DNA of 52,781 nucleotides, counting the filler, from Jimgerdemannia flammicorona (lineage: Eukaryota), in assembly GCA_003990765.1 (NCBI GenBank). It is 2 parts of 2 records of this genome, joined end to end, with 100 filler letters (N's around TTAATTAATTAA, not from the genome) between each part and the next. Parts side by side here need not be neighbours in the genome. Positions count along the whole stretch, not along the records: positions 1 to 26,344 come from RBNJ01000734.1; 1 more part is not named here. One strand, 5' to 3'. The position numbers were made by a program, and so were the translations under genes. Position 1 is the stretch's first letter; the number at the start of each line of letters is the position of its first letter. The notes beneath the pieces are model-generated. The model worked only from the letters and a program-made list of their open reading frames with translations. It was not told the origin of the DNA and made no database searches. Positions 163 to 46,979 of the stretch are shown piece by piece.

Positions 163-1440
163 AAGATTTTGTAAATATTGAAATCCTTGCAATTGTCAAA
201 ATCTTCTACAGATGTTGAAAAGATTCAATACTTGCAAAAAGTAACTCATAACTTAACTACCTTATAGCTAGAAAACTTGTATAAATATCCCCAATATCTA
301 AAGTGAATAAACCTCAGATTGAAAAAGTTCAAAGTAAAGTAAAAGTAAGAGAACTAGTATATATCTACAGACAGATATACTTTGAACTCACCTACTTCTG
401 TATCTTGAGGACTCTAAAGAGTCAAAGAAGATCAAGTTTTCAAGATACAGAAATCTGATATACTTATATAGTTATGCATCTTCTATATTACAATATACTG
501 AAAAAAGAAAATAACAGAGCTCAGATCAAAAGAAATCAGACTAAGAAATAAATAAAAAAATGACTCTTAAGATCTATAATCTAAAAAATGACATCTTAGC
601 TCTCATTAGATATAAAATCTATTAAAGATAGATAGAAGATATCATCAACTTTATAGAAGCTCTAAATCCTATGAAAAAAAAGAGAAATCAATTACCTTCA
701 AGATTCCTCTACTAGAGCCAGCTTAACCTTAGAGTCTGGAGACTTATATCTACTAGAGCCTCAGTCTAAGGATAATCTAAACTTAGTAAAGATATTGTCT
801 AGGATGTCTTACTATATCCCAAGACCAAATTTCCAATCAAAGCTTATCAAGAAGATATAGAATATAATTTTCATAATCTTAGAGATAAATCTATTAAGTC
901 TGAAAGAATAACAGTACTTAGTATACATAGAACTAGCTATATAGCAATCTAAAGAAACTTACATCCAATTGACCTTAAAGTCTAGACTTGCTAAATAAGG
1001 AATACTATAAAAAGAGGAATAATAAACTTTACTAAATCAAGATTATTCTGAATAATAATATATAGAATAAACCTAAATCTATAAAAAACAAAAGATTGCA
1101 CAAGCAATCTTCATAAAGGTCAAGACTCTCCAACTCAAGGTACAAGACAAACTGAAGAATTTGGAAGCTCAGATAAAAAAGAAGTACACCTTTACTAGAT
1201 TAACCACTTTAAGAAAAATATCTCTCAATAAGTATATATACTATCAACTAGTCAAGCTATATAAGAACCTTATCCTAAAACCAGAAAAGCAGACCATCTT
1301 TGAAATATTTACACCACCTGATCCTAGAAACCTCTCTTTGAATTCAATGAGGAAATCAAGAACCTAGATATAGAAAAATATATGTTTCTTGACAAGATGA
1401 ACTCTATGTACTCTTGAGTAACCAACTAAAGCTAGAAATC

Positions 1441-4087: not shown

Positions 4088-5288
4088 ATTTAGTATATTA
4101 TCTGAAATTTTCAGCCTGAGTAGTGAAGAGGCTATTGAAGCTAGCCAAAGATTGGATCTGGGCTGAGAGACAGAGTCAGATTAGCTGGGAAATTCTGTTA
4201 TTACTAGTGGATAGAGGAGGCCTTGGGCTGGTTGACTTTTCAAAGAGACTACATTGTCTGAGAGCTTAGTAGCTGAAGATAGTTATGGAACTGAGGGGTG
4301 GTAGCTGGGTTTCTCTGATAAGAAAGGTCTGGGAGATGAGGTTTTTACTAAAGGGCTCTACAGGAGATCTATTGTCTTTGGTTGGGCTTCAGAACAGTGA
4401 GTGCATACAGTATAAGGGCTTCTGGTGGAGAGTAGTTAATGGGGTGTACCATATTGATCTTTGCTAGCAGGAGACTAAGAGAGAGATACTATGGAATCTG
4501 ACAATATAGAGATGAGATTGAGTATTGTTGGGAGGTACTCTACTGATTGACTTCAATATTAGTAATGGGGTAGAGTACCAGAGAGAGTTAGGACAGTATA
4601 TATGGCCTAGTGGCTGGTAGATGGCCAGTATTAGAAAGGGGTAGGACTGGAATAGAGTTTGGGCTTAGAGTGTTGAGATATAGTAATAGCTACTATCTAA
4701 GTTCTGAGTAGTTTGATAGCACTTACTGAGAAGGAATATCATGCTTAACTTTTGTTCAGGTTATTTTATAGAGGGTGGATACTTTGATTGTAAGGAGTAT
4801 TATAATATAGAACAGAAAGAGGGGTTTGTGCAGATACCAGAATATTAGCTGAGAGAGTGTGAGATTCTTAGAGACTTTTGGTTAATAGTTGGGAATAGAT
4901 TGAATGTTGTAAGGAGGGGGGATGATGATAGAAGTTGATGGGAGAATTTGAGAGATAGATTGGTAGGGAGGATTAGAAATGAGTGACTCACTATTGGTTA
5001 GGTTTCAGATATATAAGTGGGATTGGCTAGACACTGGCTTTTTGTTTTTGAGAAAGAGAGGCAATTGGGTTTGAGAGAGTAGCTGACAAGATAGGAAGGG
5101 TTGATGGTAGATATCTTGATGAGTTAGTGACTAGCTAGGATGGGGTCTGCAAAGAGGTTATTAGTATTATTTAGTAGAGAAAATTTATAGACAGAGTGGG
5201 GGAAGTCCTCCTAGGAGGATTGGGTAGTGAGATGGGGTACTGTATTTATATTTGATAGACTAATAATAAATGGTAAAGTTCAAGAGAC

Positions 5289-5356
<68 letters not shown>
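4088..5356 (+). mobile_element. 5'-truncated, degenerate family-A LINE with poly(A)
   Basis: Aligns by eye to the ORF2 3' part at 13165-14415 (WIWAERQSQISWE, YKGFWWRVV, VQ.PE..L.EC). A64 tail at 5293-5356. Possible 7-bp TSD GAATCAG at 4081-4087 / 5357-5363. Confidence 0.88.
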
Positions 5357-5358
<2 letters not shown>

Positions 5359-5918
5359 ATCAGTCAGATATCAGACTAAAGATTGTCATCAGGGCTGGAG
5401 CAAGTACTGTATTGATAGAATCTTCAGATTGGTATAGAGTAGTTAGATAGTAGATATTACTCTCTACTACTTTTGACAATATATAGGATTAGACTCTAAT
5501 TATTAAGGGTGGTCAGAGGGTCTGAAACTATCCAGATCAGATGTCTTAGTTATACTTAATACTGAAAGCTAATATAACAACATGATTGAGGCCTATAGGC
5601 TTAAGTAGTAGGGTATTGGAAGTCTTTTTATATCTTATATATAAGTCTTTTACTCACTTTATTGAGGAGAACCAGTCCTATCTATCATTCTATACTTTGA
5701 GGGAGATTTTTCTTTATCTGTTACTCTACTTGAAGTAGTGGGGGCTATGCAAATTAGCTCAGATATAGTCTTATATATATATATTGGAGTTTCAGGTATA
5801 CATCTTTGGTTATAGATATATAGTTGCTTACTCTTTGATAATAGGAAGAGTATAGTATGCAGAATGAGATATAAGTAACTTAAGCCCTACTATATCTAGT
5901 ATAGTTGAGCTACTGGAC

Positions 5919-6595: not shown

Positions 6596-7125
6596 ACTGA
6601 TACAATATACTATATATAATATACAATCAATAGAATTACCATGAACTGATATAACATACTACTAATGGAATTATCACAAACTGGTATAATATTTTACTAA
6701 TGAAATTACTATAGACGATATAATATACTATATAGAATTACCCAGACTGATACAATATACTACTAATGATAGTGGTAACTTGAATGAGTTGAGAGAGTGT
6801 GATGACCTGTGAAGAGAGAGAGGATATTTAACTTAGTGACAAAATGAGATTATATAATATAAGATGAATTACTGATTATTATTCATTGAGTACTTTATTA
6901 TTATTATTATTATTATTTATTATTCTCACAATCATATTAGGAATTATTATAGACAGATATAATATACTACTAATGGAATTACCATAAACTGATAAAATAC
7001 TCTACTAACAGAATTACTATGAACTGGTACAATATACTACTAATAGAATTATTATAGACTGATATAATATAATACTAATGAAATTATTATAAACTAGTAT
7101 AATATACTACTAACAGAGTTACTAC
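6596..7125. repeat. Subterminal 35-bp tandem repeat of the MULE, two blocks (~6596-6770, ~6941-7125)
   Basis: Unit ~CTGATATAATATACTACTAATGGAATTACCATAGA, ~5 degenerate copies per block. Confidence 0.85.
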
Positions 7126-8229
7126 AATAATACCTGAAGAGAAATATGCTTATCTATTCAATATCTAGATCTTTCTTTTATATACTTAACTAATTGTACT
7201 TTAAGAATTGGTATGAAAAAATCTTCTATTCATCTCTATTAAAAAGTTATCTAGAGCTCTATTGCATTCAAACATTTGAAATAAGTGGTCACTATTCCTT
7301 ATTGAATTTTTCTATTAAAAGTTTGAATAATTTATAAGTATTAAGTAGAGAAAAACAAACCCTTGTGACACTGAGTGATATTTCACAAAAATTAAGATTA
7401 CATATATAATGATAGCTCAAAAGATCTAAGTTGAATTGTATGCTAATTCTCCTGACCATACTCATATCTTGGAGAATAGTGATAGACTAAAGTATTTACA
7501 GATAATTATAACATTGACTGAACAAGAGACCTCTAAGTCCTATATATTACTTACTATTATTACCACTATCAAAAAGCTGGTAAAAATCTTAGTATTTTCT
7601 CTAGTATAAGAAATATTGTTATAAAGGATATTGCTAACATCAAGCAAGAGTCTGTGGATCAGAAATCATAAGCCTTATTGGTGAGTCTGACCTCAAAAAT
7701 GATATTCAAGCTTTTGAGAAATTTCTTTTGATAAGAGAATATCAGATTGATCATTTCTCAATTATATAGTACTTCTCAGAAGACTTTTGCTTTATAGACC
7801 CTTAATAGTTACAGAAGCTCAACAATATGACTGGTTAACTTTTATTGATTCTACTTATAATATCAATAAGTATAGATGGTATATCTTTATTATAATAGTT
7901 ATAATTATTGAAATGTTGATATATATATACTTCTTCTTAAGTAGTAAGAACAGTAATACTGTGGTAGTAACATTGATGACAGTTTGATGATTTAATCCTC
8001 AATAGAAGTCTTGATATATACTTGCTAACCAGAGTAGCATTAATAGGCCATCTTTCTCCAGTAACATTCAGGTTACACAATCTTTTGACAACACTTTTGA
8101 TGCAGTTTCTGGAGACAAGCTACTAGTATTATAGCAACCAATGAGTATCCTGAGGTACATACTGTGCAGGGTGGCCCTGGAGCATTTGAATGGCAGTAAG
8201 TAGGGAGAGGCCTGGGCTTGGGGGGAAGT

Positions 8230-10163
8230 ATGAGGGGCCTGCTGGTGGGAGGATGCAGTGGAAGAGGGGGTGGAGCTGGAGGTCAAGGGTCTGGTAGAGC
8301 GAGCTTTGCAGAGAAGGTGAAGGGGGGTCAGCAGGGAGCTGGACTGGAGAGCTGGCTGAGAGGGGGGAGGGTGCCAGTGAGGGCTACAAGGCAGCAACCT
8401 CTTGGGGGTGCCTCTCTGGAGGGCCATAGGGGTGGAGCTGGGGGGGTAGTGGCTGAGGCAGGGACTGCTGATGGGGGTGTGATGGGTGATCTGGAAAAAA
8501 ATCTAGATGGGACTGCTGATGGTGAGCTGAGCAGTAGAAAGAGCATGAGGCCCAGGGACCTGGTGGATGGTGTAATGGGACTGGTGGTGGCTCTGTTACT
8601 CAAGAAGTCGATCTCGGAATTTGTGGTCACAATGTGTTTCCAGGGCTTGGCGGTGACAGCAAAAATGGTTCTGGGGCTGATCACGAAGCAGATGAGTAGT
8701 GTGGTATCTGTTAAGTTCCTGAAGGGCCTAGAAGGAGTGGAGGTGGGATTTGAGGAGGCTGGGCCACTGGAGGAGGCTTTGAAGGCTGGGATGAAAGTGG
8801 GTAAGGTGTGCATACTAATGGTGAGATACCTGAGGTGGGACCTGAGAGTAGTGCAGCTTCTGGTGAAAGGAGTTCCCATGGTTACTGCTGTAGAGATAAG
8901 AAAGAGAGTCAAGGAGATCATGGCAGAGTATGGGGAGGTGGTTGATATTGGGTTCAGAGTGTGGAAAGGAACCTCCCTCTGGACAGGGGATGTTGATATC
9001 AGGATTCGGTTGGCTGGGCAGGAGGCTACTGGGAAGGCTCAGGACTGGCCCTCAGTGATGGTGTGGGGGGCTTTCTTGTGCAAGGTGACGAGAGTAAAGG
9101 GGAGCGAGGAGGAGGAGGAGGATTTTCTGGAAGCACTGGAGGAGTTGAGTGGAGTGGTGGAGAGGAGGGCAAAGGCATGGAAGGTATTCGAGGAGGCAAT
9201 GCATCTTGAGGTGTTGGTGGGAAGTGAGTCTGCATCAGCAAGGTGGTGTGGGAGAGGTCTCAAGAGCACAGAAGGCAGAGGGAATTGTTGACAAAAATGG
9301 GGGTGGAGGTGATGAGGAAGGCAAGTGATAGTGCAACCACTGAAGGTGCTGAGGCGAGTGTCTGGGCTGCTGGTAGTGGAAGGAATGAGGAGGGGGGGCA
9401 GGTGGAGGCTGAGAAGGTGCCAAGCAAGAATCTGTATGAAGATAGCACACTTGAGGTTTGGGAGGAAACCTAGGAGAATTCACCTTCACCCTCCCCCCTT
9501 ATCAGAAGGGGTCCAGCAGCAAGAGGTAGGGTAGTGGAGGATGTACCAATGTGCAGTGCTCAGCAGTTGTGCTTTGGAGTCCCAAATGTAGAGAAGGGGG
9601 GATTGGTAGAGGCGACTGGGGAAGAGGAATTGGTGGATGTCCTAGAGGAGAGATGGAATGAGTCAGCAAGTGTAGGGGCTGATACTATGATGTTGGATGG
9701 AGGGAGGCCAGTGACCCCTAGAGGGAAGGAGGTGGGAAACTTACTCTGGGTGTGCCGGATGATGAACAACTTGGCAGCAGAAGAGCTGGGGGAAGTTGAC
9801 TTCCGAGTGATGAGTGATGAGCATTGGGCAAGGATCCTGCAGGGTGATGGAGTGGTGGCAGCATTGAAGGCAGAAATTCTGGCAGTATACTTGAAGGAGG
9901 AGGGGTATGAGGTAGATAAGGAGAGGGAAGCTGCTCTGGCAGTTGTGGCAGGTGAGCAGGCTGCCCACTGTTGGACTAAGTGGCATAGACTGCAGCTCTG
10001 GCAAGAGGCTTGCTTGGAGTACTGCATGGAGTTTGAGGAGAAGGAGGATGGGGAGATGGCTGAGATCCTGGCTGAATTAGAGGCTAAGAGGGCCGAGGAA
10101 GCAGAAGATATTGCTGAGTGCAACCTGGATAGGGCACAGGAGGAAGTGGACATGGAGCAGTAG
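8230..10163 (+). pseudogene. LINE ORF1 (Gly-rich N-terminus, putative RRM-like region, acidic C-terminus), disrupted
   Basis: ORF pieces 8218-9291, 9243-9473 and 9534-10163 are homologous to 32029-33800 (-) and 25433-26344 (+). Position is upstream of the APE ORF. Confidence 0.8.
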
Positions 10164-10194
10164 AGGACTCATCTGAAACTATATAATTTCCCTT

Positions 10195-13100
10195 ATGAAT
10201 AGTACAACCAACATTTTTTCTTTGAACGTGAATGGGTTATGGGGTGCTTATTGATGTAAGAACATTTTTACTTGGCTGAAGGGATTGGAGGCCAATCTCT
10301 TCCTCTTGCAGGATATCAGGTGTGAGGATGACTTGGATAGACTGGAATGGACAAAGGAGTGGGGAGGTGAGGTAGTCTGGAAGGGCAAGGTTGGAATTCT
10401 GGTGTGGAAAGGCAGAGGGAAGATGCAGGATATACAGAGCTGGGGAGATAGATTGGTCTGGGGAGAGTGGATTCACACAGGTTGGGATCCAGTCATGGTG
10501 GGCTCCTGTTACTGCCCTGTGGTATGGGGTGAGCAGGTGAATTGGGTAACAGACCTACAGGAGAGTGGAATTCTTGCAGAGGTTGGGGTGGATGTGCTCG
10601 GTGGGGACTTCAATATGGTCCAAGACATATTGAGGGATAGAACTGATGGAGGAAGAGGAGCTGTGGGTCAGAGTGGAGGACTGGCGGCATGGGAGGAAGT
10701 GGAAAGACTGAGTGCTCTGGTGGATGTGGGTAGGGAATGTTGGGGGAATAGGAGGGTGTACACATACTGGGCCAGGGGCCTGGGGATGAGGATTGATTGG
10801 ATTCTGACAGCCAGCTGCTGGGGCTTGGATGTTTGGAAGTTGCTGGAGGTAGAATGGTGCCCTTGGTCAGATCATTGGGGGCTTTTAGGGCAGGGACATT
10901 TTGGGGGGAGTGGGGATGGGTCTGGACATTGGTGTCTCAATTCCTCCTTACTGAATGATAAGATCCAGTGGGATAAATGGGCTGAAGTCATTCAACTGCA
11001 GGTGGAGTGCTGGAGGCAGGAAGGTGTCCCAGTTGATATTCGGTAGATGAGAATGAAGGAGATGGCCAGGACCTTCTGGAGTGAGGCTGGTATGGAGGCT
11101 GGGAGACAGAGGAGGAGGAGGGTGCGGTGGGCATCTAGTAGACTATTCAGAGTTATGAATATAGTTCAAACTGCGGCAAAGTCCCTGAGGTGGGAGGAGC
11201 CTAGAACAGTCTGTTTCAGTATATATAGTGTAGTTTCAGCCGGGGCTTCAGCCCATTTCAGTTTACCCCAACCGTAGTATACTTAGTTAGTACAATTTGG
11301 GGGCGCCTTTATTCACTGCAGGGCAGTGCACCCCACCCCCCCCCTCATCGTCTAGCCGAACAATAGGCTGAACAACAGCATTAGTCTCTAGTAGTAGCTT
11401 TCAAGCTGTTTTCGCGCACCCCTCCCTCCCATCCATAGTGAAATATGAATAAAGGTTGGCCTTCTTCACCGTAGGCGAGGGCGGGCCTGGGAAGCGCGTG
11501 CTTTACCCAGCCAAACCCAACATTCACTTGGTTGCTCGTTTTGATGTCCCCTTCTCCTTCCCTTCCATTTCATTCCTCTCACTCGATCAGTGCAATCTTC
11601 CCTTTTTTTTGGCAGTACCCAATTTTGGCGCGCCCGGGGACATTGCTAGACTCTTGGAGGACTGAGCAAGACTGGCAACATTGGAGGGAGAGGAGGACTG
11701 GTGATTGATAAGGTTAAGAATGGAGGTGGCTGAACTACAACAGGTGCTGTAGAATGAGGAAGAGGCAAGGGTCCAGGGTCTGGCAGTGCAGCTTCATTGG
11801 CAGGGGCTGGAGGAAGGAGAGCAGTCCTCAAAGTTTCTTATAAGAACCCTTCAGGTGAGAAGGGTGTAGCAAAGGTGGGAGGGGGTGCTTAATGCTGATG
11901 GTATATTAGTGCATAGGGTACAAGACATTCTTAGATTGTTAAAGAAGCATTGGAGTGGATTGTGGAGTGAGGAGGAGGGTGGGGCAGATGCTGAGGACAT
12001 TGATCAAGCATTGGAGGATTGGCACCCTACCCGAGCAAATGGGTTGGGTAACTTGGTACTGCCAGTGCTAGAGGAGGAGATCCACCAGGTTCTTGCTGCG
12101 ACAACCTTGGGTATAGCACCTGGGGAGGATGGTCTGCCCTGGGACTTCTGGAAAAGGATGGTGGGAGTCTCTGGAGTACTGGGAGAGATGACAGCACTGT
12201 GTGATTGGATTCTACAGATGGGGAGATGGGTGGGAGAACAGGATCTAGGGCTGGTAACATTGCTTTATAAGAACAAAGGAAGCCAAGAGGACTGGAAGAA
12301 CTGGAGGCCAATTATGCTACTGGATATAGACAGAAAGTTGGTTACCAAAGTAGTGGTTGCAAGGTTGCAAAAGGTGGCCCAGCAAGTCTTGGGTGAGGAG
12401 CAGCGGGGCTTTGTGAGAGGCCAGCTCATCAGGGATGGCACAGCATGGGTGTATGGCATTATTGAAGGGGCATGAGCCAGTGGACTGGATGGACATCTGG
12501 TCTTTTTGGACTAAGAGAAGGCTTATGACCAAGTGCGATGGGTCTGGCTGGCAAAAGTTTTGGATAGGATTGGGGTCCCATAACAGTTCAGGGCAGCCAT
12601 GGTCAGCCTGTTGGAAGGAAGTAGGATGGTACTCCTGTATAATGGACATAGAGGGGTAGCATTTCCCCTGGGTAGGGGGGTGCCCCAGGGGGACCTGCTG
12701 TCTCCCATTTTGTATGCTTTGTCTCTAGAACTCTTCATGGACAGAATCAGGCAGAAGATCATGGGGCTCTCTATCTTTGGCATTGAGTGGAAAGTAGGGG
12801 CATTTGCAGATGACATGGTAGTTGGTCTGGGATCAATTACAGATGTGGAGAAGCTCAAGGAAACAGTGGAGTGGTATGAGGCGAACTCTGGGGCTAGGCT
12901 TAATTGGCATAAGTGTGAAATAATGGTGTTAGGTAATGGTCTGGTGGACAGGGAGATTATTGGTACAATTGTCCCTGCTGGTGAGGCAGTGAGATACTTG
13001 GGTATTTATCTGTCAGTATATGGGTCAGTTCTGCCCAGACTTTGGTGGGAGCAGTGGGTTGGTATTTGGGAGGAGGCCCTGCGGAGTTGGGGGGGCCGCC

Positions 13101-14350
13101 AATTGTCTCTGATAGGACATGTTTCAATTCTGAACATCTATTGGCTGCCAAAGGTGTGGTATCTGGCTTATCATCTGGACTTCCCAGCTTGGGTGGTGAA
13201 GCGATTGATAAAGCTGACCAAGGGGTGGATCTGGGCTAGAAGGCAGAGTCAGATCAGCTGGGAGGTCTTGTACTTACTGGTGGTGAGTGGGGGACTCGGG
13301 CTGGTTGACTTTCCTAAGAGGCTGCACTGCTTGAGAGCATGGTGGCTGAAGAGAGTGGTGGAGTTGAGAGGGGGTGGTTGGGTTCCTCTACTGCAGAAAG
13401 TTTGAGAGATGAGGTCCTCTTCGAGGGGTTCAACTGGTGATCTCCTAGCACTTGTGGGCCTTCAGAACTCTGGACAATTGCAATACAAAGGCTTCTGGTG
13501 GGGAGTGGTAGAGGGGGTGTGCCACATTAGAATTAGGTGGCAGGGAAATGAAGGGGAGGAGGCTTGGGACCCAGTGATGTGGAGATGGGACCAAGTGTTA
13601 CTAGGTGGCATTTCCTTAATTGAGTTTGACATTAGGGATGAGATCAAATGCCAATGGGGACCTGGCCAGGATCTGTGGCCTAGCAGTTGGCAGGAAGTAG
13701 GAATCAGCGAGGAGTGAGACTGGCATAGCATTTGGGCCTGGAGTACCAAGGTGAGAAGGTGGCTGCTGCCGAAGTATTGGGTGGTCTGGTGGCATGTACT
13801 GAGGCGAAATGTCATACTCAACTTCTGCTCTGGTCACCTTTTTGAGAGAGGCTGCTTCAACTGTGAAGAGTGTTATAATGTAGAGCAGGAAGAGAGATAT
13901 GTACAGACACCTGAACATTGGCTAGGAGAGTGTGAGGTACTTAGTACCTTTTGGCAGAACATTGGGGATCATCTGGGAGTAGTGTGTAGGGGAGTTGCCA
14001 TACAGGGGTGATGGGAGAATTTAAGGGGCAGGCTGGAGGGGGGGGGTGGAGAAGGAATGGCTGATGCTAGGTTGGACTTTGGCCATTTGGGTGGGGCTGG
14101 CCAGTCACTGGTTATTTGTTTTTGAGGATGAGAGGAAACTTGGCTCCGAGGGCAGGCTGCTGAGGTGGCAGAGACTTATGGAAGACACCTTGATGGGCTG
14201 GTGGCTTGGTTGGGGGTTGAAGGGAGGTTGAAGACATCATTTGGTAGAATAAATCTGTCAGTAGAGTGGGGGGAGGGTTGGTGTTGTGGGTGAGAAAGTA
14301 GTCTTTATTCATGTAGGTAGAGGGAGTGGCACCCCTATGGGGATTGGGTA
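10195..14350 (+). pseudogene. LINE ORF2: APE endonuclease - reverse transcriptase - C-terminal CCHC, disrupted
   Basis: Motifs SLNVNGL, LLQD, GGDFN, RIDWI, WSDH (APE); PGEDGLP, NWRPIMLL, QRGF, GVPQGD.LSP.L, FADD, YLG (RT); CEEC...EHWLGEC. Confidence 0.93.
11153..11663. mobile_element. Unclassified 511-bp CpG-rich insertion inside LINE ORF2
   Basis: Removing it together with one flanking GAG restores ...RLFRA RLATLEG... in frame. GAG lies on both sides. No TIR, TG..CA ends or poly(A) are seen. Confidence 0.7.
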
Positions 14351-14411
14351 GTGGGAGGGTGACCTGTATAATTATTAATAGATGGGTAATAAATGGCGGA
14401 GTCCAAGTAAC

Positions 14412-14449
<38 letters not shown>

Positions 14450-15499
14450 AGAGTAGCATTAAGATGAATACTATCAAGATGATTTTTCTAGATACTAATA
14501 TAAGAGAACAAATATGCAATATTTGTACACATAATGAGAGTATAGATGAAAAAGATCTATTATATAGCTACTTATAATAAGATGATTCTTATAATATATA
14601 AGAGAATAAAAATTAGATATGAGAAGGCCATTCAAGATGCTATTACTATATATCTATCTTATCTAAGATATTACTCAATATATTTATTAAAATTATAAGA
14701 GAAATTTAGAGAGATGTGTATCAATACTCACCCCTTCTATTATAAGTAAACTCAATAAATATACTAGAGTTTTATCATAGTGAGCTCAAAGTGAGGATAT
14801 CTAGAATATATAGTATAATTAATAAGTAATTTATTAAATTTTTTAATATTATCTATATATATTAATAATCTTTATACTAATGGCTTATTCTAATTATATA
14901 ATTCTTCTCTATTAAGAGTATCTATAAAGATTGCAGAGCTTGATAATAAGAGGTACATTAGTGCTAAAAAGGCTAAATTTGATTTTTACACAAGATATAT
15001 CTCTGTAATTAATCTCAATAATAATATATATCCTCAAGTAAATATATAAGTTTCCTCTTTTTATATAAGGATGATTACTAATGAGATAATAGCTATAATG
15101 ACAAGATTAGAGAAAGACAAATTATCTTCAGATCTGATATCAGCAGAATATTATTGTCTTTTTTTTCACTATTATCTTCTTCTCTACTAATATATCTTTT
15201 ACAAGTATATCTATAGTGAAGAGAGACTTCTAACTAAAGAGGTTTGAAAGAATTTCCAGCTAATGTTTGAAAAATCTGAGTTTAAAATATATAAGTACTA
15301 TAAGTAAGTTGAAATTATAGAATCTTAAATAGAAGCTAAGAAAGGAACAGAAATATATTCGTTAGTAATTAATAAGCTAATAGAGCAAGTATATGATAAA
15401 TTTTAGAGAATTAAAGAAAGAGGTAATATAAGTATATTATTGATAGTTATTAGATATTTATCAACCTTATTAGACTTAGTTATTAATAGAGAAGATTGA

Positions 15500-16360
15500 G
15501 AACAATCTCTTTTCTCTTTTTTCTTTTTCATTATTAAGAGTAGTCTTTTTTTTCTTTTTTCTTTTTTATCTTTAAGATCTCTTTTTTCTTTTTCATTATT
15601 ATGAGTAATTTTTTTCTCTTTTTTCTTTTTTATCATTAAGAGCAATTTTTTTTCTCTTTTTTCTTTTTCATTATTGAGAGTGTTCTTTTTTCTTTTTTTT
15701 CTTTTTTATCTTTAAGAGTGATCTTTTTTCTTTCTTTCTTTTTTTATTATTTCTATTAGTTTACTTTCTCTTACTTTCTCTCTTTCACAATTATATTAAT
15801 AAAAAAATTCTCTTTTTTTTTTTTAATATTTGATAATTAGAAGATACTCAATTTGGGAGTTCTCTAAAGCCAGGACTGCTATGTGACAAATTTGTCATAT
15901 GAAAAAATACTTATATAATCTTTTGAGACCAAATTGAGTATCTTTTAATTACTGAAATACTAGAAAAACGAAAATATTAAGAGAAAATTTTTATTAATAT
16001 AATTGTGAATGAGAAAAAGAAGAGAGAAAGAGAGAGAAAGAGAACTAATAGAAATGATGAAAAAGAAAAAAGAGAAAAAAGATCACTCTTAATGATAAAA
16101 AAGAAAAAAGAGAAAAAAAATTACTCTTAATAATAAAAAAGAAAAAAGAGAAAAAAGATTACTCTTAATAATAATTACTTTTAAGAATAAAAAAGAAAAA
16201 AGATAAAAAATAAAAAAAATAAAAAAGAAAAAAGAGAAAAAAGATCACTCATAATAATGAAAAAGAAAAAAGAGAAAAAAGATTACTCTCAATAATAAAA
16301 AAGAAAATAGAGAAAAAAAATTGCTCTTAATAATAAAAAAGAAAAAAGAGAAAAGAGATT
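15500..16360. repeat. Inverted pair of low-complexity ~39-bp repeat tracts (T/C-rich 15500-15800; A/G-rich 16010-16360) at the MULE 3' ends
   Basis: Unit ~AAAAAGAAAAAAGAGAAAAAAGATTACTCTTAATAAT and its reverse complement. Confidence 0.85.
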
Positions 16361-17489
16361 GTTCTCAATCTCTTCTGTTAAGAACTAGGTCTAATAAGAT
16401 TAATAAATATCTATAAATGTCAATGATATACTTGTATCACCTTCTTCTTCAATCCTCTAAAATTTGTTACATACTTACTCTATTAGCTTATTAATTACTA
16501 GCTGATATATTTCTACTTCTTTCTTAGCTTTTGTTTGAGATTTTACAATTTCAACTTACTTATAGTACTTATATATTTCAAATTTAGATTTTTCAAATAT
16601 TAGCTAAAAATTCTTCCAAATCTCTTTAGTTAGAAGTTTCTCTTTACTATAGATATTGTGGCGTGCGGTTTGTATCCCTAGTTCTCTTCAGGCACAACTC
16701 AAGGTGCCACTTGATGAAGTGCGCGATATATGACTGAGTACGTTCGCGATGGTTATGGGTCGATAGTCACATGATCAGGTCGTTCGAAACATGCGATAAT
16801 TGATAATAGCGGGAGTTTGTTCGACGATGGCTCAATTGTTTAGTGAAAAGAGTGGCGAATAACTTGGCAGTGAACTTGAATTTATGCGGCGACGACGGGC
16901 TTGGCTTTAAGCAGTTCATGGTGCAGTAGGTCGGAGGTTGACGGCTTGCTCGTCCGTCTTGACTTGTTAACTTGAAAGGTTCCTGGCAGTCATTCGGGTC
17001 TTTGGCAGTGGTCTTGTATCCTTTGGCTGGGTAACTTGGGTTCCTTGGGTTTCCGGGTCTTGAATCTCGAATGGTAGTCAAATGCGCGGTCCGAATGGCG
17101 GTCTGAATGCACGGCGGTCATAGTCTTGAATCCTTGGCTGGGTCTCGGGTCTCGAATGGCAGTCAAATGGCAGCAGTCGGGTAACGTTTTCTTTCTGTGG
17201 CAAGAGAAAATTCTTTAACTCAAACTTCCGAGCAATCCATTGCTCTAGGTTGTTATCTTGTTCTCAGAATTTATCTGGTCTCTTGGAGGCAGTGGTTTCT
17301 TTGTAATCCCTTTTTACTTTTAAATACAAACTGACTGAGGTTTATTCACTCTAAGGATATGGGTTATTTATACAAGTTTGCTAGCTATGGATGCGGCTAA
17401 GGTATACTATGTTGTGGCGAACATTCGCTATGCTATTGGCTTGCACAATGCAAGGTGCAGGCTATTGTTTACTACGGATTGGGTTGTAG

Positions 17490-17712
17490 GGGATAGCAAC
17501 ACTGGATTCGGATGAGCAGACAGGAATGCTGATTATTGCCAGAAATAGTTGTGGAGGGTGGCAATGCTGAAAACGGGTGTTGCTGACTTGCTGACAAAAA
17601 TGCTGAAAATGGTGGCACTGGATAGCAACGCTGGATTTGGACTTGTTGACAAAATGCTGAAAACAGTTGTGCTGGGTAGCAATGCTGGTTCGGACTTGCT
17701 GACTTGCTGACA
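17490..17712. repeat. Degenerate ~54-bp tandem repeats in the putative U3 region
   Basis: Recurrent GGATAGCAACGCTGGAT(T)TGGACTTG(C/T)TGACAAAATGCTGAAAA, 3-4 partial copies between the ORF stop and the TATA box. Confidence 0.7.
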
Positions 17713-17751
17713 TGAAGGCTGCACAATTCTCACAGCTGACGGGTGGTACTT

Positions 17752-18852
17752 CTAGAGGAAATAGTACACTTCGTCTGCGGCAGGCAAACCTTGCTGGGTT
17801 AAGATTTCTTCTTCATCATACTTCTCCTCAAAAGGGGGAAGCACCGGCCAAGAGGTGAGGGGGTAGAAAAGTGGCCAGTCATCTTCAACAACATTCTCCA
17901 ACCCTTGAACAGCTTGAATGCCGACAGAGGACTGGTAGACTCTCTGTTGCTCCTCTTCTTCTTCTGAAAACTCGTCAGTTTCAGTGCCAGAGAGGGTTTC
18001 TTCAGGGGTAGGGTCTTGGAGTTCTTGGGCTTCCTCTTCAAAGACAGGGACCTCTTGGGCTTCTTCTTGATTCGGTTCCCAAATGATGAGATGTGAATTG
18101 TGGCTGACAGGGTGGTGGGTGGTTGGGGTAGCTCCCATGGGTGCTTCTATGGTAATGGGTGGTCCTTCAAATATCTCCATAAGACTCATTAGGTGACCTT
18201 GATGGTTGTCTCGGAGTGGGGTGGTGTGGAAACCTGGTTGAGTAGATTCGGTTTGTTGGCTTCCTACAGCGACGCGGTTGCTACCAGTAGAGTTGGCTAC
18301 TTCAGATTCTATCCAGTCAGCATCTTCAGTTGAAAGGCAGGAGAGGCTGCCAGCTGTTACTCCTTGCAAGTGTGCTATGGCCCAGGGAATATGGTGGAAG
18401 ATTTGGTGGACACGGAGGGCTCTCTTGATTAGCCGGCTAGTGGTTATCAATTCAGTAATGAGGCCTTCCCGATCATCTTCTTGAGTCTCATTGCAAAGGC
18501 GGTGTCTGATTTCGTAGTCATGCCAGAGGGTCATTCGTTCAGTAGTGTCTTTGAGCTGCTGGGTCATTATATACCGGTAGTTGATGAAGTGTCCAAGGTC
18601 CTCGGTGTAGAAGTTCAAGTGTTCAGAAGTATCTGGGCACCAGATGGCCTTCTTGATAGCTTCAAAGATCAGGGTCTTTGGGCCAGACAAAGGGGTAGAG
18701 CGGCGGGAGGTCTGGTTGGATCGGCGAATGGGAGGTATTGTGTGGTGGGTACTTGGTTCTTTGGTGCCGATCCCTGAGGTGGAGTATGGTTCCTTAAATA
18801 ACATGGTCTTCATTTTGGCTCGGATCATCTTGTCTTCTTTTGGGATGATCAC
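17752..18852 (-). CDS. Intact 366-aa (358 from first ATG at 18828) LTR-element accessory protein of unknown function
   Basis: Uninterrupted ORF with a basic N-terminus, a probably helical core and an acidic tail. Protein-level similarity to 35948-36778 supports real coding. Confidence 0.8.
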   Translation of the reverse strand: MIIPKEDKMIRAKMKTMLFKEPYSTSGIGTKEPSTHHTIPPIRRSNQTSRRSTPLSGPKTLIFEAIKKAIWCPDTSEHLNFYTEDLGHFINYRYIMTQQLKDTTERMTLWHDYEIRHRLCNETQEDDREGLITELITTSRLIKRALRVHQIFHHIPWAIAHLQGVTAGSLSCLSTEDADWIESEVANSTGSNRVAVGSQQTESTQPGFHTTPLRDNHQGHLMSLMEIFEGPPITIEAPMGATPTTHHPVSHNSHLIIWEPNQEEAQEVPVFEEEAQELQDPTPEETLSGTETDEFSEEEEEQQRVYQSSVGIQAVQGLENVVEDDWPLFYPLTSWPVLPPFEEKYDEEEILTQQGLPAADEVYYFL

Positions 18853-20614
18853 CTAATGAGTCAGGCTGTCCATTTGATTGTCACGCCATTATGTCGTCTG
18901 ATCTTAGCAGTCACTGGTACTCCATTGTCAATTGCGTACGTCACAATATACTTATGAAAGATATATATATTGGCAGAAAAGAAGATAATAGTGAAAAAAA
19001 AAAGACAATAATATTCTGCTGGTATCAGATTTGGAGATAATTTGCCTTTCTCTAGTCTTGTCATTATAGCTGTTATCTCATCAGTAATTATCCTTTATAT
19101 AGGAAAAGAAAGCTTATATATTTGCTTAAGGATATCATTGCTGAAATTAGCTATAGAGATATGTTTTGTATGGAAATCAAATTCTATCAATATACTTCTT
19201 ATTATCAAGCTCTACAATCTTTATAGATACTTCTAATAGAGAAGAATTATATAATTGAAATAAGTCATTAGTATAAGATTATTAATATAGATAATATTAA
19301 AATATTTAATAAATTACTTACCAATTAAACTATATATTCTAGATATTTTTACTTTAAGCTCACTATAATAAGACTCTAGTATATTCATTGAGGTTACTTA
19401 TACATAGTAGAAGAAGTGAGTGTTGATATACCCAAAGAGTTTATCTCTCTAAATTTCTCTTATAATTTCAATGAATATATTAAGTAATATCTTAGATAGG
19501 ATAGATAGTAATAGTATCTTAAATGGCCTCCTTATATTTAATTTTTATTCTCTTATATATTATAAGGATAAGTAGCTATATGATAGATCTTTTTCATCTA
19601 TAATCTCATTATATATATACTATAAAGAATAATATTATATATTTGCTCTCTTGTATTAGTATCTAGAAAAATCATCTTAATAACATTTACCTTAATGTTC
19701 TCTAGTTAGTAAGTATATATCAAGACTTCTACTGAGAATCAAATCATCAAACTGTCATCAATGTTACTATCACAGTATTACTATTCTTACTGCTTAAGAA
19801 GAAGTATATATCAACATTCTAATAATTATAGCTATTACAAAGATAGAGTATAAAGAGATACTATCCATACTTATTGATATTATGAGTAGAATCAATAAGA
19901 GTTGATCAGTCATATTGTATAAGCTTCTATAACTACCAAAAGTATACAAAGAAAAAGTCTTCTAAGAAGTACTATATAACTAAAAAATGATCAACCTGAT
20001 ATTATCTTTTTAAAAGAAACTTCTCAACAACTTGAATATCATTTTTGAAGTCAGACTTACTAATAAGCCTTATGATTTCTTGTCTATAGACTTTTTGATT
20101 AATGTTGGCAATATTCTTCATAATAATATTCCTTATACTAGAGAAAATATTAAGATTTTTTATCAGCTCTTTGATAGTAGTAATAATAGTAGGTGATATA
20201 TAGAGCTTAGAGACCTTTTGTTTAATTAATATTATAATTTTCTGTAAATACTTCAGTCTATTACTATTCTCTAAGATATGAGTATGATCAGAGATATTAG
20301 TTTACTATTTAACTCAGATCTTTTGAATTGCTATTATATATGTAATCTTAATTTTTATAAAATACTACTCAGCATTACAAGAGTTTGTTTTCCTATACTT
20401 AATGCTCTGATCTTCTTTTTATATGCTTAACTGATTGTACTTCAAAAATTAGCAGGAGAAAATCTTTCACTCATCTCTATTAGAAAGTTGTCTGGAGTGT
20501 TATTGTATTCAAATATTTGAAATAAGTAGTTACTCTTCCTTATTGAATTCTTCTATTGAAAGTTCAAATGATTTATAGATATTGAATAGATGAATATATT
20601 TCTCTTTAAATATC

Positions 20615-20870
20615 ATTGTGATAATTCTATTAGTAGTATATTGCATCAGTCTGTGATAATTCCATTAGTAATATATCATATCAGTCTATGATAATTCTGT
20701 TAGTAGTAAATTGTATAAGTCTATGGTAATTCTATTAGAAAGTATTGTACCAGTCCATGGTAATTCTGTTAGTAGTGTATTATATCAGTCTATGGTAATT
20801 CTATTAGTAGTGCATTATATCAGTCTAGGGTAATTTCATTAGTAGTACATTATGTCTGTCCATAATAATT
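20615..20870. repeat. 35-bp tandem repeat of MULE copy 2 (~7 units)
   Basis: CAGTCTATGGTAATTCTATTAGTAGTGCATTATAT-type units, the reverse complement of those at 6941-7125. Confidence 0.88.
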
Positions 20871-21845
20871 CTTGATATAATTGTGAGAATAATAATAAAT
20901 AATAATAATAATAAAGTGCTAGATAAATAATAATTTGTGATTCATCTTGTATTATATGTAAGAGTGAATAAATCTCAGTCTGAAATTGAAACCAAAAAGT
21001 AAAAGACAAGTCTGCCTACTGCACTTTGAGATATATACCTGCCAAAAGCCACTTGATCCAGGAAAGATTGCAATACTTAGGAGAAATACCTGCTCTAAAG
21101 CCACTTTTAGGAGATTGTGAGCTTGATGTCCTTTTCCACTCTGGTCCACTTTCTGATACAAAGAAGTCTGCCATCTTGCCACAAAGCCAGTCCACCTGAT
21201 GCACCTTCACAGTGAATTCATTCGCGCAAACAAAGCAGTCTTTGACGTAACTTTGCTCAAGGGAAGTCCACCAAGAAGCCTGCCGATTCAGGAATAATCC
21301 ACGCCAACTAAAATCCACGCCAACTAAAATCCACACCAGCTATGTAACCCGCCATCTAAGGAAGAATCCGCTTCACCCGCCATATCTGCATCACGCCACC
21401 CAGGAATTCGCCGCCTAATTAAAAAATTGCCGAAATCACCCGCGTTATGCGAAACAGAACATTTTGTTGCTTTTGACAAAGTAACTGGGGGCTCAAGCAA
21501 ATCTACATAGCAGCCCCAGCCTTGTAATTTGTCTCCATTGAGCTGGCACATTACAATATATATAGAGTAACCATGCTAAATATTCTTTATATATCTGACA
21601 ATACTATAGTATTTACTTATTACAATATATTTTTATTAAAGATATATAGAATTACTCTTACATATATCACAATTTTTACTCTTTTGATATTTTTCTTTTT
21701 TTTTCTATATTCTTTGATATATTTTTAGTAATTCTTACTCAAGGTTTTCTTTTGATTCTTTCCAATGAGTCTTATAAGTAATTTCTTCTATATCTAAATA
21801 TTATTTGATAGCTTTTGTATTGAATATTTTGAAAACATATAGTAC

Positions 21846-35169: not shown

Positions 35170-35936
35170 TGTAATAACTCTCACTTCTACCCCTCTCTTA
35201 TCCTTTAGATAATTAGGGAAGTAGACTATTACTTAGGGACTTAGTACACAATATATATCAAGAAGCCTTCAGTTTGAGGAAGTGCTCACTTTAAGTAGTT
35301 GTAGTGGCAGTGCCATCTGTTTCAAAGGTCTTTCTCTTGTGCCCTATTTCGAAGGTCTTGTTCTTTGCTATGCACAGACTGATTTCGCCTTGGAATTCAG
35401 GTTCAATGGGTTTACTTAAGTCTTTGGGGATTTATATACTGGTCTCAGTTCTGGCAGAAGTTAGCTAGGCTTCTGGAGTTTAGTCAGAAATACTAGAGTC
35501 ACTTAGGTGTCATTACTAAGACTCAGAGGAATGTGTGTGTATGAGGGGAACTTGATTCTTGTATCAAGGACTGAACTAAAACTGCTTTATTTCAGATGGA
35601 AACTGGGGGGTATTTATACAAGTTGGTTCGCGATTTCTGACTAAGTATGAGTGACTAATTTGGTAACTATAATGAGGTTTGTGATTGCGACCTTTGTCAG
35701 GTGGTTTGTTGGCAAAAACATCTTTGTGATCAGGACCTCAATTATTAGGCAATGATCAGCAGCTGTGGTAACTGTTGCTGTGGTGCCGATTGTTGGGGAT
35801 AAGTTGGATATTGTTTTCAATGTCGTTTCGCATCATTCATCACTCACTATTCATATGTCATGCTCAATCGTATTATGACATGATCACTGCTGGGTCACAT
35901 GATCGCTTGTCATTCATCACACCTCATTCTATTACA
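35170..35936 (-). repeat. 3' LTR
   Basis: TGTAATA...TATTACA, a direct repeat of 43502-44268. TATA at 35611-35618 and AATAAA at 35586-35591 on the minus strand. Confidence 0.96.
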
Positions 35937-35949
35937 TTCTTCTCCCCTT
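35937..35949 (-). promoter_or_regulatory. Polypurine tract
   Basis: AAGGGGAGAAGAA immediately before the 3' LTR. Confidence 0.9.
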
Positions 35950-36778
35950 AGAAATCAATGTCCTCGTTGATTGAGAAATTGAGAACCAGGGGAGAGAAAG
36001 GTGGGGAATCCTCTTCAGGGTTGTTGGCATCCTCTTCAGTAGCAGGGGGGGTGGTGGTTGTTGAAGTCTCGCTGTCCAGGATGGAGAAGTCAATGAGGTC
36101 TGCAAATGGTTCCTGCATTGGGATGGGTGCTGGTATAGGGGTTCTCCATCTGATGCAGTTGGGGCTATTCAAGTAGGGTTCTTGATCTTAATGCCTGGAA
36201 ATATTCATGTAGATAGGTGGTCCTTCAAAAAGGTCAGAGAGGCCTTGGAGCCATTGGTCTGGGTTGTCATTCAGGAGGGGGCTCCAGTAGGGTTTGCAGT
36301 CAGTGGACTTGAGGGTGATCCAGGAGTTGGCTTCTTGGGCTACCTTGATCTCTAGTTTGTCAACCTTGAAGAAAGAGAGGTTCTGGAAGTCCTTCAGTTG
36401 GACATAGTTGAGGTTGGGGAGTGCAAAGGATGTATGGCATATGATTCAATGGACCTTCTTGGCAAGTCTTTGCTCGCTCCCATCCAGGTGGGTCCAATCA
36501 GAGACTTGGTCCATGGGCAGGTTATTTGCCCATTGGAGGAGTTGATGGCCAATCTCATATTTATGCCAGATCTCTAAGTGGCTGGTGGCAAGGTAGGCTC
36601 TTTTGATGACTTCACGGTAGTTGAGGACATAATGTCCTATGTCCTGGCTGGAGAGGTCAAGGGCCTCTGAGCAGTGATTCCTTCCTTAGATAGCAACCTA
36701 GATGTGTCCAAAGAGGTGGTCAACCTGGCTTGGGAGGGGCCAACTACGGCAGGTGGTTTGGCAGTAGGTAGCAGGCAT
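35948..36778 (-). pseudogene. Accessory ORF3 of the gypsy (277 codons, 4 in-frame stops, no indels), homologue of 17752-18852
   Basis: Manual translation: MPATYCQ...PLPSQVDHLFGHI*VAI*GRNHCSEALDLSSQDIGHYVLNYREVIKRAYLATSHLEIWHKYEIGHQL...RLAKKVH*IICHTSFALPNL...PLLNDNPDQWLQGLSDLFEGPPI...acidic tail. Confidence 0.8.
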
Positions 36779-36839
36779 TCTTGTCTTGTCTTTTCTTTGT
36801 GGGAAGAGGGGGATGAGAGTTGCAAGGTATTCTTGCCTT

Positions 36840-36851
36840 GGGTATTTATAC
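36840..36851 (-). promoter_or_regulatory. Putative internal TATA box for ORF3
   Basis: GTATAAATACCC lies ~65 nt upstream of the ORF3 ATG. It is the same 12-mer as the LTR TATA box. Confidence 0.55.
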
Positions 36852-37422
36852 TTATTCACCTATCTGGTGTGACCTTCCTTTGGTCACACTTTCTGATAAA
36901 ATATATGACCTGTTGCTGTAAGTGGGGCATGTGCTGGTCACATGAGAAAGTCCTGATTTCAAAGATCTTGTTACTTGTAGTTGTGGTTACACAGGGTTAA
37001 CAGGTCTTGGTCCACTTTTTTTTTGTCTGGTTGGCACATTTGTGAGGACTGGCCATCCTTGTCTAGGGCGAGGGCTCCCATTATTGCAGCTGGGGGTTTG
37101 AACCTCTTGGAAATAGACTTTTCTTGTAATCCGAGGCAATTCCTAGTAACAATATCTATCACGTGAATGGACTTAAACTGGTTTTGACATTGTCAGCTTT
37201 CCTAAGTTCCATATGAAGCATCTGTCATCATCCAGCAGAGATGACACAGATGGTGTAAAATGAAGTTGTTCAAATGTGTTTTGCTATACTGTACTAGATT
37301 GTTCTTTTGCTTGGGTATCTTCTTGTTAGTTATCCATAGTGTTCCTTTTTCTGCAATGTTCGGTATTATATGTTTCCAGGTAAAATATGTAGTATCCTTC
37401 TTCTCATTATACGCTCCAATAC

Positions 37423-40400: not shown

Positions 40401-40895
40401 TTTGAATGGCAGAGATGATTTCAATTCCTTGATGGTTAGTACCTTCCTGGGGTGTCAAGGTGATATTTCTGCCTTCATGGGTCAGGTTAATCTTGTTGGT
40501 TCTCCAGTTGATGTCTGGGTTGTGCTGGGTCAACCAGGCTTTTCCTAAGATAATATCTTATCCTGGGAGATCTACAATGCTGAAGTCCAACTTCTCTTGA
40601 TATTTGCCAATCTTGAGCAAAAGATCTTTGCAGATCTTAGTCAATGGTGCAGTTTTTCCATCACCAAAGGTGACACTTCTTTTCTCAGTGGCTGGTCTGC
40701 TTCGGGCTCCAATCCTCTTGGTGGTCTTGATGCTGATATAGTTTCCAGTAGCACTACTATCAAGCAAGACATTGACATTCTATCTGTGGACTTGGCCTGT
40801 AAACTTGATGTAACTGTCCTCCTTCTTGATGGTATTAAGCTCTTCATCTTCATTGTTGTCCCAATTGTTGTCAGTCTCCTCGAAGTCAGTTTTTC
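37423..40895 (-). pseudogene. pol: pol: protease, RT, RNase H, integrase, chromodomain (single frame, nonsense stops only)
   Basis: LDSSATGNYIS (PR); [28 protein letters not shown] (RT); TDVS, ADGFSR (RH); HDTP..GH..CEMC, MDFIVQLP, YHPQTDGQTE, GPY (IN); FDIEEVLDH..FLIKWKGY..IWE (chromodomain, ~37470-37630). Confidence 0.95.
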
Positions 40896-41132
40896 CCATC
40901 CTTCACAAGGAGGGTTGTCTTGTTTGGGTTTCTCAGTCTGTTGAGCTTGATGTTTCTTGGATTGAATTTTGAAAACTTTGGAGAGGCATGCATGGCATTC
41001 ACCAATATGTTCCATGCAGTACATTCTAATGGAATGAGGGCATCATCCACATGGTGCATAACTATCTGCAATTCTCCTGTACTCATTTTCATCATCTTCC
41101 TTCATGGTAGTGACCTTTTGACTGGGAGGTTT

Positions 41133-41546
41133 ATTGGTAGATCCAAACCCTTTCTTGCCATGGTCTGTCTGGGAGAGTTTGGGGACTTCTTCAATGGTGA
41201 GATCTTGATAGATTTCTTCAATAATTGCTTGGGCAATTCTCTGGCCTGTTTTGACTTCAAATGATGTGTCTCCAAAATTTTGCAAGATGACATGGATTTC
41301 GCTAGTAAATCCTTGGTCAACTACTCCTCCTCCTAGTCCAATGTTGAACTCTTTGGCTAGGCTGCTTCATTCAGCAAGGCAGATGTATATTCCTTTGGGA
41401 GCTTACATTGCAATTCCTGTTCATACTGTAGCATTGGTACTTGGTGGAATAGTGAGATCTTGACTGCTGTAGAGGTCATATCCAGTATCGGTTGGGTGGG
41501 CCTTAGTGGGGATGGTAGCCTTGTACCATATCTTCTGTACTTTGAT
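41133..41546 (-). pseudogene. dut: Trimeric-type dUTPase domain, in the gag frame
   Basis: All five motifs are readable: TGYDL, (R>*)SSL, GVVDQGFTSEI, GQRIAQ, HGKKGFGST. Confidence 0.92.
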
Positions 41547-41639
41547 AACATTCTCAGTGTTCTTCTTTCCTGGACCTTCTCCAAAGACAGTAATGTTCTG
41601 GTTACTGGGTTCACCTGTTCTGTACTTCTTCTTAGGACA

Positions 41640-43400: not shown

Positions 43401-43484
43401 AGTTAATTCTGGGGGTTACTCCTCTCTAAGGTTGGTCTTGTTCCAACTTCAGGAGTGTATTCTCTGGTGCCTTCTTGGCTGGTA

Positions 43485-43498
43485 ATCCACTGCTACCA
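43485..43498 (-). promoter_or_regulatory. Primer-binding site, probably tRNA-iMet
   Basis: TGGTAGCAGTGGAT, 3 nt downstream of the 5' LTR. Confidence 0.8.
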
Positions 43499-43501
43499 AG
43501 T

Positions 43502-46785: not shown

Positions 46786-46979
46786 CTCAAAGAAGTCCCT
46801 TCCACCACTCCATCAGCTTACCAATTCCTAACCATGGGTCCTGCTCAAACACCTATCTCCAGTGTACTGCCATCAGGACCCAGACCCCTAAGACTTGACC
46901 TAGTCCCCCCCAAATATTTACTATTTTCCCCACTAGCTGGCACTTGACCACCAGACTGATAGGATCTCCAGTTCTGACA
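46786..46979 (-). mobile_element. Relic of the ORF2 C-terminus of an older family-B LINE
   Basis: The reverse complement encodes GVWVLMAVHWR*VFEQDPWLGIGKLMEWWKGLL, matching 52500-52695. Confidence 0.8.

Follow-up and report, generated by a model that had tools for sequence, protein, structure and literature searches.

In the human and simian immunodeficiency viruses, the 3' accessory gene nef reaches into the U3 region of the long terminal repeat (LTR), as do bel and bet in foamy viruses, whose accessory genes are driven from a second, internal promoter. The closest precedent for a protein gene in U3 is sag of mouse mammary tumour virus (MMTV), which both LTRs carry and which persists in solo LTRs. 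According to passages of PMC4667437, LTRs are ordinarily non-coding, most of sag lies within U3, and this location makes sag likelier to be preserved. An excerpt of PMC3601003 gives as conserved LTR features the TG...CA short inverted repeats (~7 bp), a TATA box, AATAAA and a GT-rich stretch. Here, we describe a 2289-bp inserted unit (16657-18945) in a 52,781-nucleotide stretch of DNA of Jimgerdemannia flammicorona (assembly GCA_003990765.1; hereafter, the window), in which all the features of that excerpt are present. The unit is probably a solo LTR of a Ty3/gypsy, chromovirus-derived family, whose 2.3-kb LTR carries a 3' accessory gene in its U3. That it is some kind of LTR, counting the gene-cassette variant and the variant of large retrotransposon derivative (LARD) type that are weighed below, is very likely.

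Compared with the systems just described, the U3 overlap of nef, bel and bet is partial, with the polypurine tract (PPT) within or beside the gene, whereas for our unit the PPT would lie upstream of the entire gene. MMTV belongs to the vertebrate betaretroviruses, while the unit would be part of a chromovirus-type retrotransposon from a soil eukaryote with AT-rich DNA, and the MMTV Sag and the accessory protein share no sequence likeness (no Pfam family, no match of PDB sequences to the profile); the likeness is in layout only. Promoters have been described inside the LTR region of MMTV, and the unit has a putative gene promoter inside the LTR; the entire open reading frame (ORF) lies there as well, as against most of sag in the passages of PMC4667437. 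A search of open-access full texts, which excludes subscription journals and Repbase reports, gave no description of LTR retrotransposons that carry an ORF within the LTR.

The insertion can be read directly from its host repeat. The unit interrupts the right arm (15971-16656 + 18946-20957) of an inverted repeat whose left arm (6852-8043 + 14446-15822) is interrupted by a long interspersed nuclear element (LINE), the arms being 78-84% identical by BLAST. These arms of ~2.5 kb each contain 35-38-bp tandem arrays, like foldback elements, and no transposase was seen in the repeat; the putative Mutator-like element named in an earlier reading made from the sequence alone (the sequence-only reading) is described here as a long foldback-type inverted repeat. 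The sister arm (15100-15310, reverse complement) is uninterrupted and has one ATAT, whereas the interrupted arm has ATAT on either side of the unit; both the 4-bp target site duplication (TSD), of a length within the 4-6 bp range for Ty3/gypsy LTRs, and the empty site are thus demonstrated directly. On the plus strand, the unit has the termini TGTGGCGTGCG at 16657 and CGTACGTCACA at 18945, that is, TG...CA ends, and on the minus strand it starts with TGTGACGTACG and ends with ...CGCACGCCACA. The sequence-only reading had proposed these ends, the TSD with its empty site and the absence of an internal LTR pair, all of which we recovered, as well as an 11-bp inverted repeat; a short inverted repeat does exist at the termini, but it matches at 9 of 11 positions, both mismatches being G/A. 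A long terminal inverted repeat (TIR) is absent from 16657-18945, where complementarity is limited to these terminal letters. No terminal direct-repeat pair was found in the same interval, all internal repeats being tandem, and a complete terminal-repeat retrotransposon in miniature or LARD within the unit was rejected on these grounds. The unit is a discrete integrase-type insertion.

Read on its sense (minus) strand, the unit consists of a TATA-like box, the ORF, tandem repeats, a TATAAATA box followed after 18 nt by AATAAA, and a 684-nt tail (Table 1), an order already proposed from the sequence alone, with a tail of ~690 bp. The TG terminus lies ~150 nt upstream of the TATA-like box of the accessory gene, a 54-bp unit is repeated 2.2 times (17585-17703) inside the tandem-repeat zone, and all four parts of the unit have one strand bias, with an excess of A + C on the minus strand. 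As is characteristic of LTRs, a TATA box and AATAAA occur in one orientation at 17372-17341, and the T/GT-rich stretch behind AATAAA (17346-17341) reads GTCAGTTTGTATTT.

An old chromovirus in the same window (35170-44268, minus strand), with reverse transcriptase, RNase H, integrase and chromodomain, provides a comparator. Its LTRs (44268->43502 and 35936->35170) are 92.8% identical over 767 nt, with a 5-bp TSD (GGCAG) and a PBS-like (primer-binding-site-like) TGGTAGCAGTGG three bases behind the 5' LTR. The end of pol (37425) is followed by a 645-nt spacer and a TATAAATA box (36850-36843), and an accessory ORF starts 72 nt further on; the position of this box suggests an internal promoter for a subgenomic mRNA. 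The sequence-only reading had this ORF stopping at the PPT, just outside the LTR, and its TAA (35950-35948) does directly abut GGGGAGAAGAA, behind which the LTR starts with TGTAATAG. The protein of the unit matches the chromovirus at 36760-36203 (29% identity over 194 amino acids, E 9e-12), the sole other match in the window. A search of metagenome_contigs with a protein alignment (A2) found one locus, a soil-metagenome contig (L001) of distant chromovirus type; the same alignment found none in viral_contigs, and a closer protein alignment (A5) found none in genome_contigs and viral_contigs. L001 carries an intact 291-codon ORF with a TATA box 80 nt upstream, and its TAA is followed by GGAGGGAGGAT and then by TGTAATAAG, which is the same layout as in the chromovirus; in both, the LTR that follows ORF and PPT starts with TGTAAT.

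With the chromovirus and L001, the unit shares a homologous protein (29-35% identity), an upstream TATA, the TATA-AATAAA core and a long U5. All three ORFs are preceded by a TATA or TATA-like box, at a distance of 62 nt in the unit, 72 nt in the chromovirus and 80 nt in L001. The distance from ORF stop to TATA box is ~375 nt in the unit versus ~325 nt in the chromovirus, and these two also have a long tail or U5, of 684 and 416 nt, respectively. By this comparison, the unit is colinear from end to end with the 'accessory gene + LTR' part of the chromovirus (ORF, U3, TATA, AATAAA, long U5). The elements differ in their boundary: in the chromovirus and L001, the ORF is internal and its stop is followed by PPT and LTR start, whereas in the unit the ORF is within the repeat unit, without such a boundary. 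They also differ in LTR length, 767 bp in the chromovirus against 2289 bp.

Other copies of the unit are known from public metagenome data, of which we compared four of 17 listed runs (X1-X4) and examined 20 of 52 listed contig loose ends. The runs sharing words with the unit are mainly soil metagenomes, and with at most 0.20 of the sampled words in any of them, they do not include data of the source organism itself. In all four runs, ORF and core are covered by contigs 96-97% identical to the window. Loose ends start exactly at 18945 in X1 (four contigs) and X2 (one contig, with 121 further letters), and these five contigs, from two studies, have one common continuation past 18945, differing by one letter. 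On the minus strand, this flank reads ...GCAAG(G/A)GGCAGA directly before TGTGACG, nine of its last ten letters being purines; it has ~50% GC over 30 letters, and its purine run opens with AAGGGG or AAGAGG, resembling the PPTs found in the chromovirus and in L001. A further likeness of the 30-letter flank to the end of the chromoviral ORF, seen by eye, is not significant and was dropped. Two X4 contigs continue past the terminus into two different AT-rich flanks, from 18950 and 18952; their alignments reach five and seven letters into the ATATA flank of the window, which suggests a preference of the unit family for ATAT-type targets. Among the loose ends listed, the terminus thus recurs in X1, X2 and X4 contigs with three different continuations, and 18945 is a family-level terminus. 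The two classes of flank are what would be expected of an interior with a PPT before 3' LTRs, on the one hand, and host DNA before 5' or solo LTRs, on the other. The 24-letter metagenome flank has no match in the window with up to three mismatches, so the interior of the unit family is not represented there.

The recurring terminus bears on an explanation by which a truncated cDNA (ORF + 3' LTR) integrated aberrantly, on a single occasion, with a left TG that arose by chance. The window does hold a single copy, but a chance end should not be the point at which X1, X2 and X4 contigs break with at least three different continuations, and we find this explanation scarcely credible.

The same evidence helps to weigh the alternative favoured second in the sequence-only reading, a Ginger-like TIR element; in its more precise form, an integrase-like transposase would have mobilized the unit, a non-autonomous cut-and-paste element of Ginger2/Tdd kind with an acquired piece of retrotransposon (ORF + LTR). 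The window has no gene for an integrase-like DDE transposase near related ends. No LTR pair was seen, the termini TGTGA and TGTGG fit the TGTNR pattern, and the 4-bp TSD lies in an alternating AT site, near the RTATAY preference of Ginger2, as given in excerpts of PMC2836005. TGTNR termini and a 4-bp TSD are also features of gypsy LTRs, and do not discriminate between the two. According to the same excerpts of PMC2836005, Ginger1 targets CCGG or CCGT, not ATAT, and TIRs measure 50-180 bp in Ginger2 and 40-270 bp in Ginger1, against 9 of 11 matching letters here; the alternative fails on this length. The content of the unit is retrotransposon-like, colinear throughout with a retrotransposon 3' end and of a single strand bias, and the conserved purine-ended flank of the five contigs would be unexpected for a DNA transposon. 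A Ginger2/Tdd-kind element is accordingly quite improbable.

The solo LTR proposed in the sequence-only reading is thus supported in part by the colinear chromoviral 3' end, the shared terminus and the purine-ended conserved flank, whereas its upstream shift of the LTR boundary is drawn from the colinearity; that the boundary moved upstream in this lineage is a reasonable inference. The start of U3 is set by plus-strand priming at the PPT, and LTR-LTR recombination is the standard route to solo LTRs. A full-length element would have entered one foldback-repeat arm at an ATAT site, and LTR-LTR recombination would then have deleted its interior, leaving one LTR between the 4-bp duplications. In this LTR, U3 would extend from 18945 to ~17350 and comprise the TATA-like box, the 328-codon ORF, the tandem repeats and the TATAAATA core promoter, with the tail as U5. 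As AATAAA lies so close behind the TATA box, the genomic RNA would start at or past the signal, which would act only at the 3' LTR, and R would be very short. Use of a PPT upstream of the gene would place the gene in U3, with the RNA genome unchanged, and copy it into both LTRs; with its own TATA-like box and the LTR poly(A) signal, each LTR, solo ones included, would be a possible expression unit. Taken jointly, a move of plus-strand priming to a place upstream of the gene, LTRs that are each a free-standing promoter-ORF-poly(A) unit, able to spread and persist without depending on gag-pol, and exchange of a 54-bp core between LTR families make a reading that we offer tentatively, at somewhat less than even chances; it points to strand-transfer recombination, within a very short R that the LTRs have in common, as the way in which they are rebuilt.

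The 54-bp core is shared well beyond chance. A 14-mer occurs four times in the window (274, 17365, 35611 and 43943) against 0.02 expected, and the pattern TATAAATA-N(15-30)-AATAAA also four times against 0.01 expected, with spacings of 18, 18, 19 and 19 nt; the 14-mer and the ~20-nt spacing that had been noted in common with the gypsy LTRs at 35611 and 43943 are therefore there. The module extends from 7 nt before AACTTGTATAAATA to CCTCAG behind AATAAA, and its flanks are unalignable on both sides. Around the copy at 264-317 the DNA is AT-rich and otherwise unalignable, and contigs of X1, X2 and X3 that match only 17335-17388 break precisely at both module borders. From such borders, this LTR group seems to have a mosaic structure in which the 54-bp core stays constant, and the module may be a core promoter with a very short R that is exchanged by recombination. 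The core DNA pattern had no match in viral_contigs; two matches in bacterial metagenome-assembled genomes were judged by alignment to be due to chance.

A mosaic structure of this kind could also be how the gene came to be in the LTR. The ORF would then have entered U3 as an inserted or recombined cassette, for example by template switching between co-packaged RNAs, with the PPT unmoved. The sharing of the core between families with sharp borders (17335/17388) amid unalignable flanks agrees with this, as do an exchangeable distal U5 and the lack of any clear relic of an old PPT or LTR start behind the ORF. However, order and distances fit the chromovirus layout, the interval from ORF stop to TATA box in particular, as a move of the boundary predicts. 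At the place colinear with the chromoviral PPT there is also a purine-rich stretch (17829-17805, 22 of 25 purines), although it is the second richest in the unit and was dropped as a candidate relic PPT because acidic codons explain it equally well. We regard the cassette as unlikely and prefer the solo LTR with a proposed move of the boundary.

Several points weigh against this solo LTR of chromoviral descent. In the metagenome contigs compared, there is no full-length copy (a direct pair with gag-pol between and a PBS after ...CGCCACA), and among the loose ends listed a left terminus is seen once, in an X2 contig that runs into AT-rich DNA without a PBS-like start. The conserved flank at 18945 is known for 24-30 letters only, its purine run holds one C, and strains in two soils could have it in common as a single fixed locus or as a nested insertion. 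Cover of the distal tail (16657-16900) is close to nil in X1, despite depths in the hundreds for ORF and core, so the tail is not a constant part of the family everywhere; X2 cover there is 2.4-3.4, somewhat under the 5-9 found across most of the ORF. The number of ~85-bp tail repeats varies among copies, with joints that skip 68 and 91 letters, and part of U5 seems, from these comparisons, to be exchangeable between sub-families. Both promoters are proposed from sequence alone, the listed sequencing runs including no RNA data. ORF variants add a further point: the 23 shown, drawn from 40 of 161 listed differences to metagenome copies, comprise five synonymous and 18 nonsynonymous changes (two of them stops), against a neutral site ratio of 355:743, so that inserted copies drift neutrally. 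Finally, the TSD is 4 bp long, against 5 bp in the resident chromovirus, which implies that a different integrase inserted the unit.

Such a TSD would also suit an LTR of a non-autonomous, LARD-like family with a noncoding interior, moved in trans. The window contains no pol fragment of a second chromovirus, and no longer or fused form of the accessory ORF was found among the library proteins. One reading frame of the conserved flank does end in a stop codon 16 nt upstream of the LTR, which is common for coding interiors but is a weak point. Nothing speaks directly against a LARD-like family, which we consider quite improbable all the same, and under which both the solo LTR and the gene in U3 stay intact.

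The accessory ORF is open from 18852 to its stop at 17754-17752, 366 codons from stop to stop. A close homologue and the distant homologues (29-35% identity) start with Met-Pro-Pro/Ala at codon 39 of the window ORF, and the upstream extension holds a stop in X1; the real gene therefore has 328 codons (18738-17752). At codon 39, copies in X1, X3 and X4 have a Met codon and the window copy has ATA; it has lost the usual start codon and is probably decaying. The 'whole gene' of the sequence-only reading is accordingly whole in its frame but not in its start. Eight library proteins match the ORF by exhaustive search, and one, at 76% identity, by word-indexed search; a 325-amino-acid relative (76-81% identity) has an uninterrupted frame between Met and stop. 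Of 1000 neutral, substitution-only simulations to 19% amino-acid divergence, no more than 17 remained stop-free, with the caveat that gene callers report open frames only. Judged by its frame, the accessory gene is real and has been maintained in the long run. In the protein, the N-terminus is basic (seven K/R in the first 40 residues), helices are predicted in the middle part, and the C-terminal third is acidic (31 D/E versus two K/R). A Pfam scan gave no family at E up to 1, PDB sequences gave no match to the protein profile, the best ESM Atlas score (0.80) is within chance range, and the AlphaFold model (mean predicted local distance difference test score, pLDDT, 49.4) is of too low a quality to be searched for related folds. 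Our guess, made with low confidence, would be that the protein serves the element as a nuclear regulatory or accessory factor. One distant homologue, P0003, extends ~45 residues beyond the usual ...LNF..IN..D terminal motif, and the accessory ORF of its lineage may continue past the PPT and enter the LTR. A search for gene calls that cross the interior/LTR junction, made with a 67-codon window ORF, gave no match.

Table 1. Features of the inserted unit, its target site and the comparator elements (window coordinates).
Feature	Position	Strand	Basis or remark
Inserted unit, 2289 bp; read as solo LTR	16657..18945	- (sense)	Termini, TSD, contig breaks
Left TSD copy, ATAT	16653..16656	.	Flank alignment and BLAST
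Right TSD copy, ATAT	18946..18949	.	Flank alignment and BLAST
Empty site, single ATAT in sister arm of foldback repeat	15207..15210	.	BLAST pairs the site with both flanks
5' terminal inverted repeat TGTGACGTACG (minus strand), proposed U3 start	18935..18945	-	Terminus recurs in X1, X2 and X4 contigs
Upstream in-frame extension, 38 codons, probably noncoding	18739..18852	-	Most X1 depth has a stop at codon 11
TATA-like box TATTTAAG, proposed accessory-gene promoter	18793..18800	-	62 nt upstream of the family start codon position
Accessory ORF, 328 codons + stop; first codon ATA here, Met in homologues	17752..18738	-	Homologous library proteins
Tandem-repeat zone, 54-65-bp units, between ORF and core promoter	17482..17721	-	Includes 54-bp repeats at 17585-17703
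54-bp core module (TATAAATA, 18 nt, AATAAA, CCTCAG), sharp borders	17335..17388	-	Common to other LTR families
TATAAATA box, proposed genomic RNA promoter	17365..17372	-	Pattern shared with LTRs
AATAAA poly(A) signal, then T/GT-rich stretch	17341..17346	-	Sequence pattern
684-nt tail, proposed U5, ends ...CGCCACA	16657..17340	-	~85-bp repeats, copy-variable number
Third copy of 54-bp core, LTR-like site	264..317	+	87.5% identical to 17335-17388 over 56 columns
Decayed accessory ORF of chromovirus, homologous to that of the unit; 276 codons with 4 in-frame stops, ends at PPT	35948..36778	-	Homology
Chromovirus PPT GGGGAGAAGAA, between ORF stop and 3' LTR	35937..35947	-	Sequence reading
Chromovirus 3' LTR, 767 bp	35170..35936	-	Pairs with 5' LTR 43502-44268

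The rest of the window is an AT-rich background (~22-30% GC) in which blocks of 45-57% GC correspond to transposable elements. The LINE in the left arm (8044-14445) has endonuclease and reverse transcriptase domains and a poly(A) tail. Stretches at 1-158, 5163-5360 and 14319-14447 also belong to it, with near-identical (99%) 3' tails at two other places, which indicates recent activity of the LINE family. The LINE has a G-rich sense strand (GC skew ~ +0.45), opposite in bias to the chromovirus. The latter sits at the edge of a large, GC-rich inverted duplication (44274-49658), built of several blocks with arms of 464-588 nt that are 72-80% complementary and without Pfam matches. An Rfam scan of 14000-21500 gave no match.

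The sag gene of MMTV is the textbook exception to noncoding LTRs, and the unit would, if our reading is true, extend such an exception outside retroviruses. The boundary of U3 would then be able to jump over a gene by a change of priming site alone, and the shared 54-bp core gives a handle on how LTRs recombine. Likewise, if true, an element-encoded protein could outlive its element in thousands of solo LTRs, and LTR cargo may account for orphan genes of ~1 kb in genomes rich in repeats, a warning for genome annotation.

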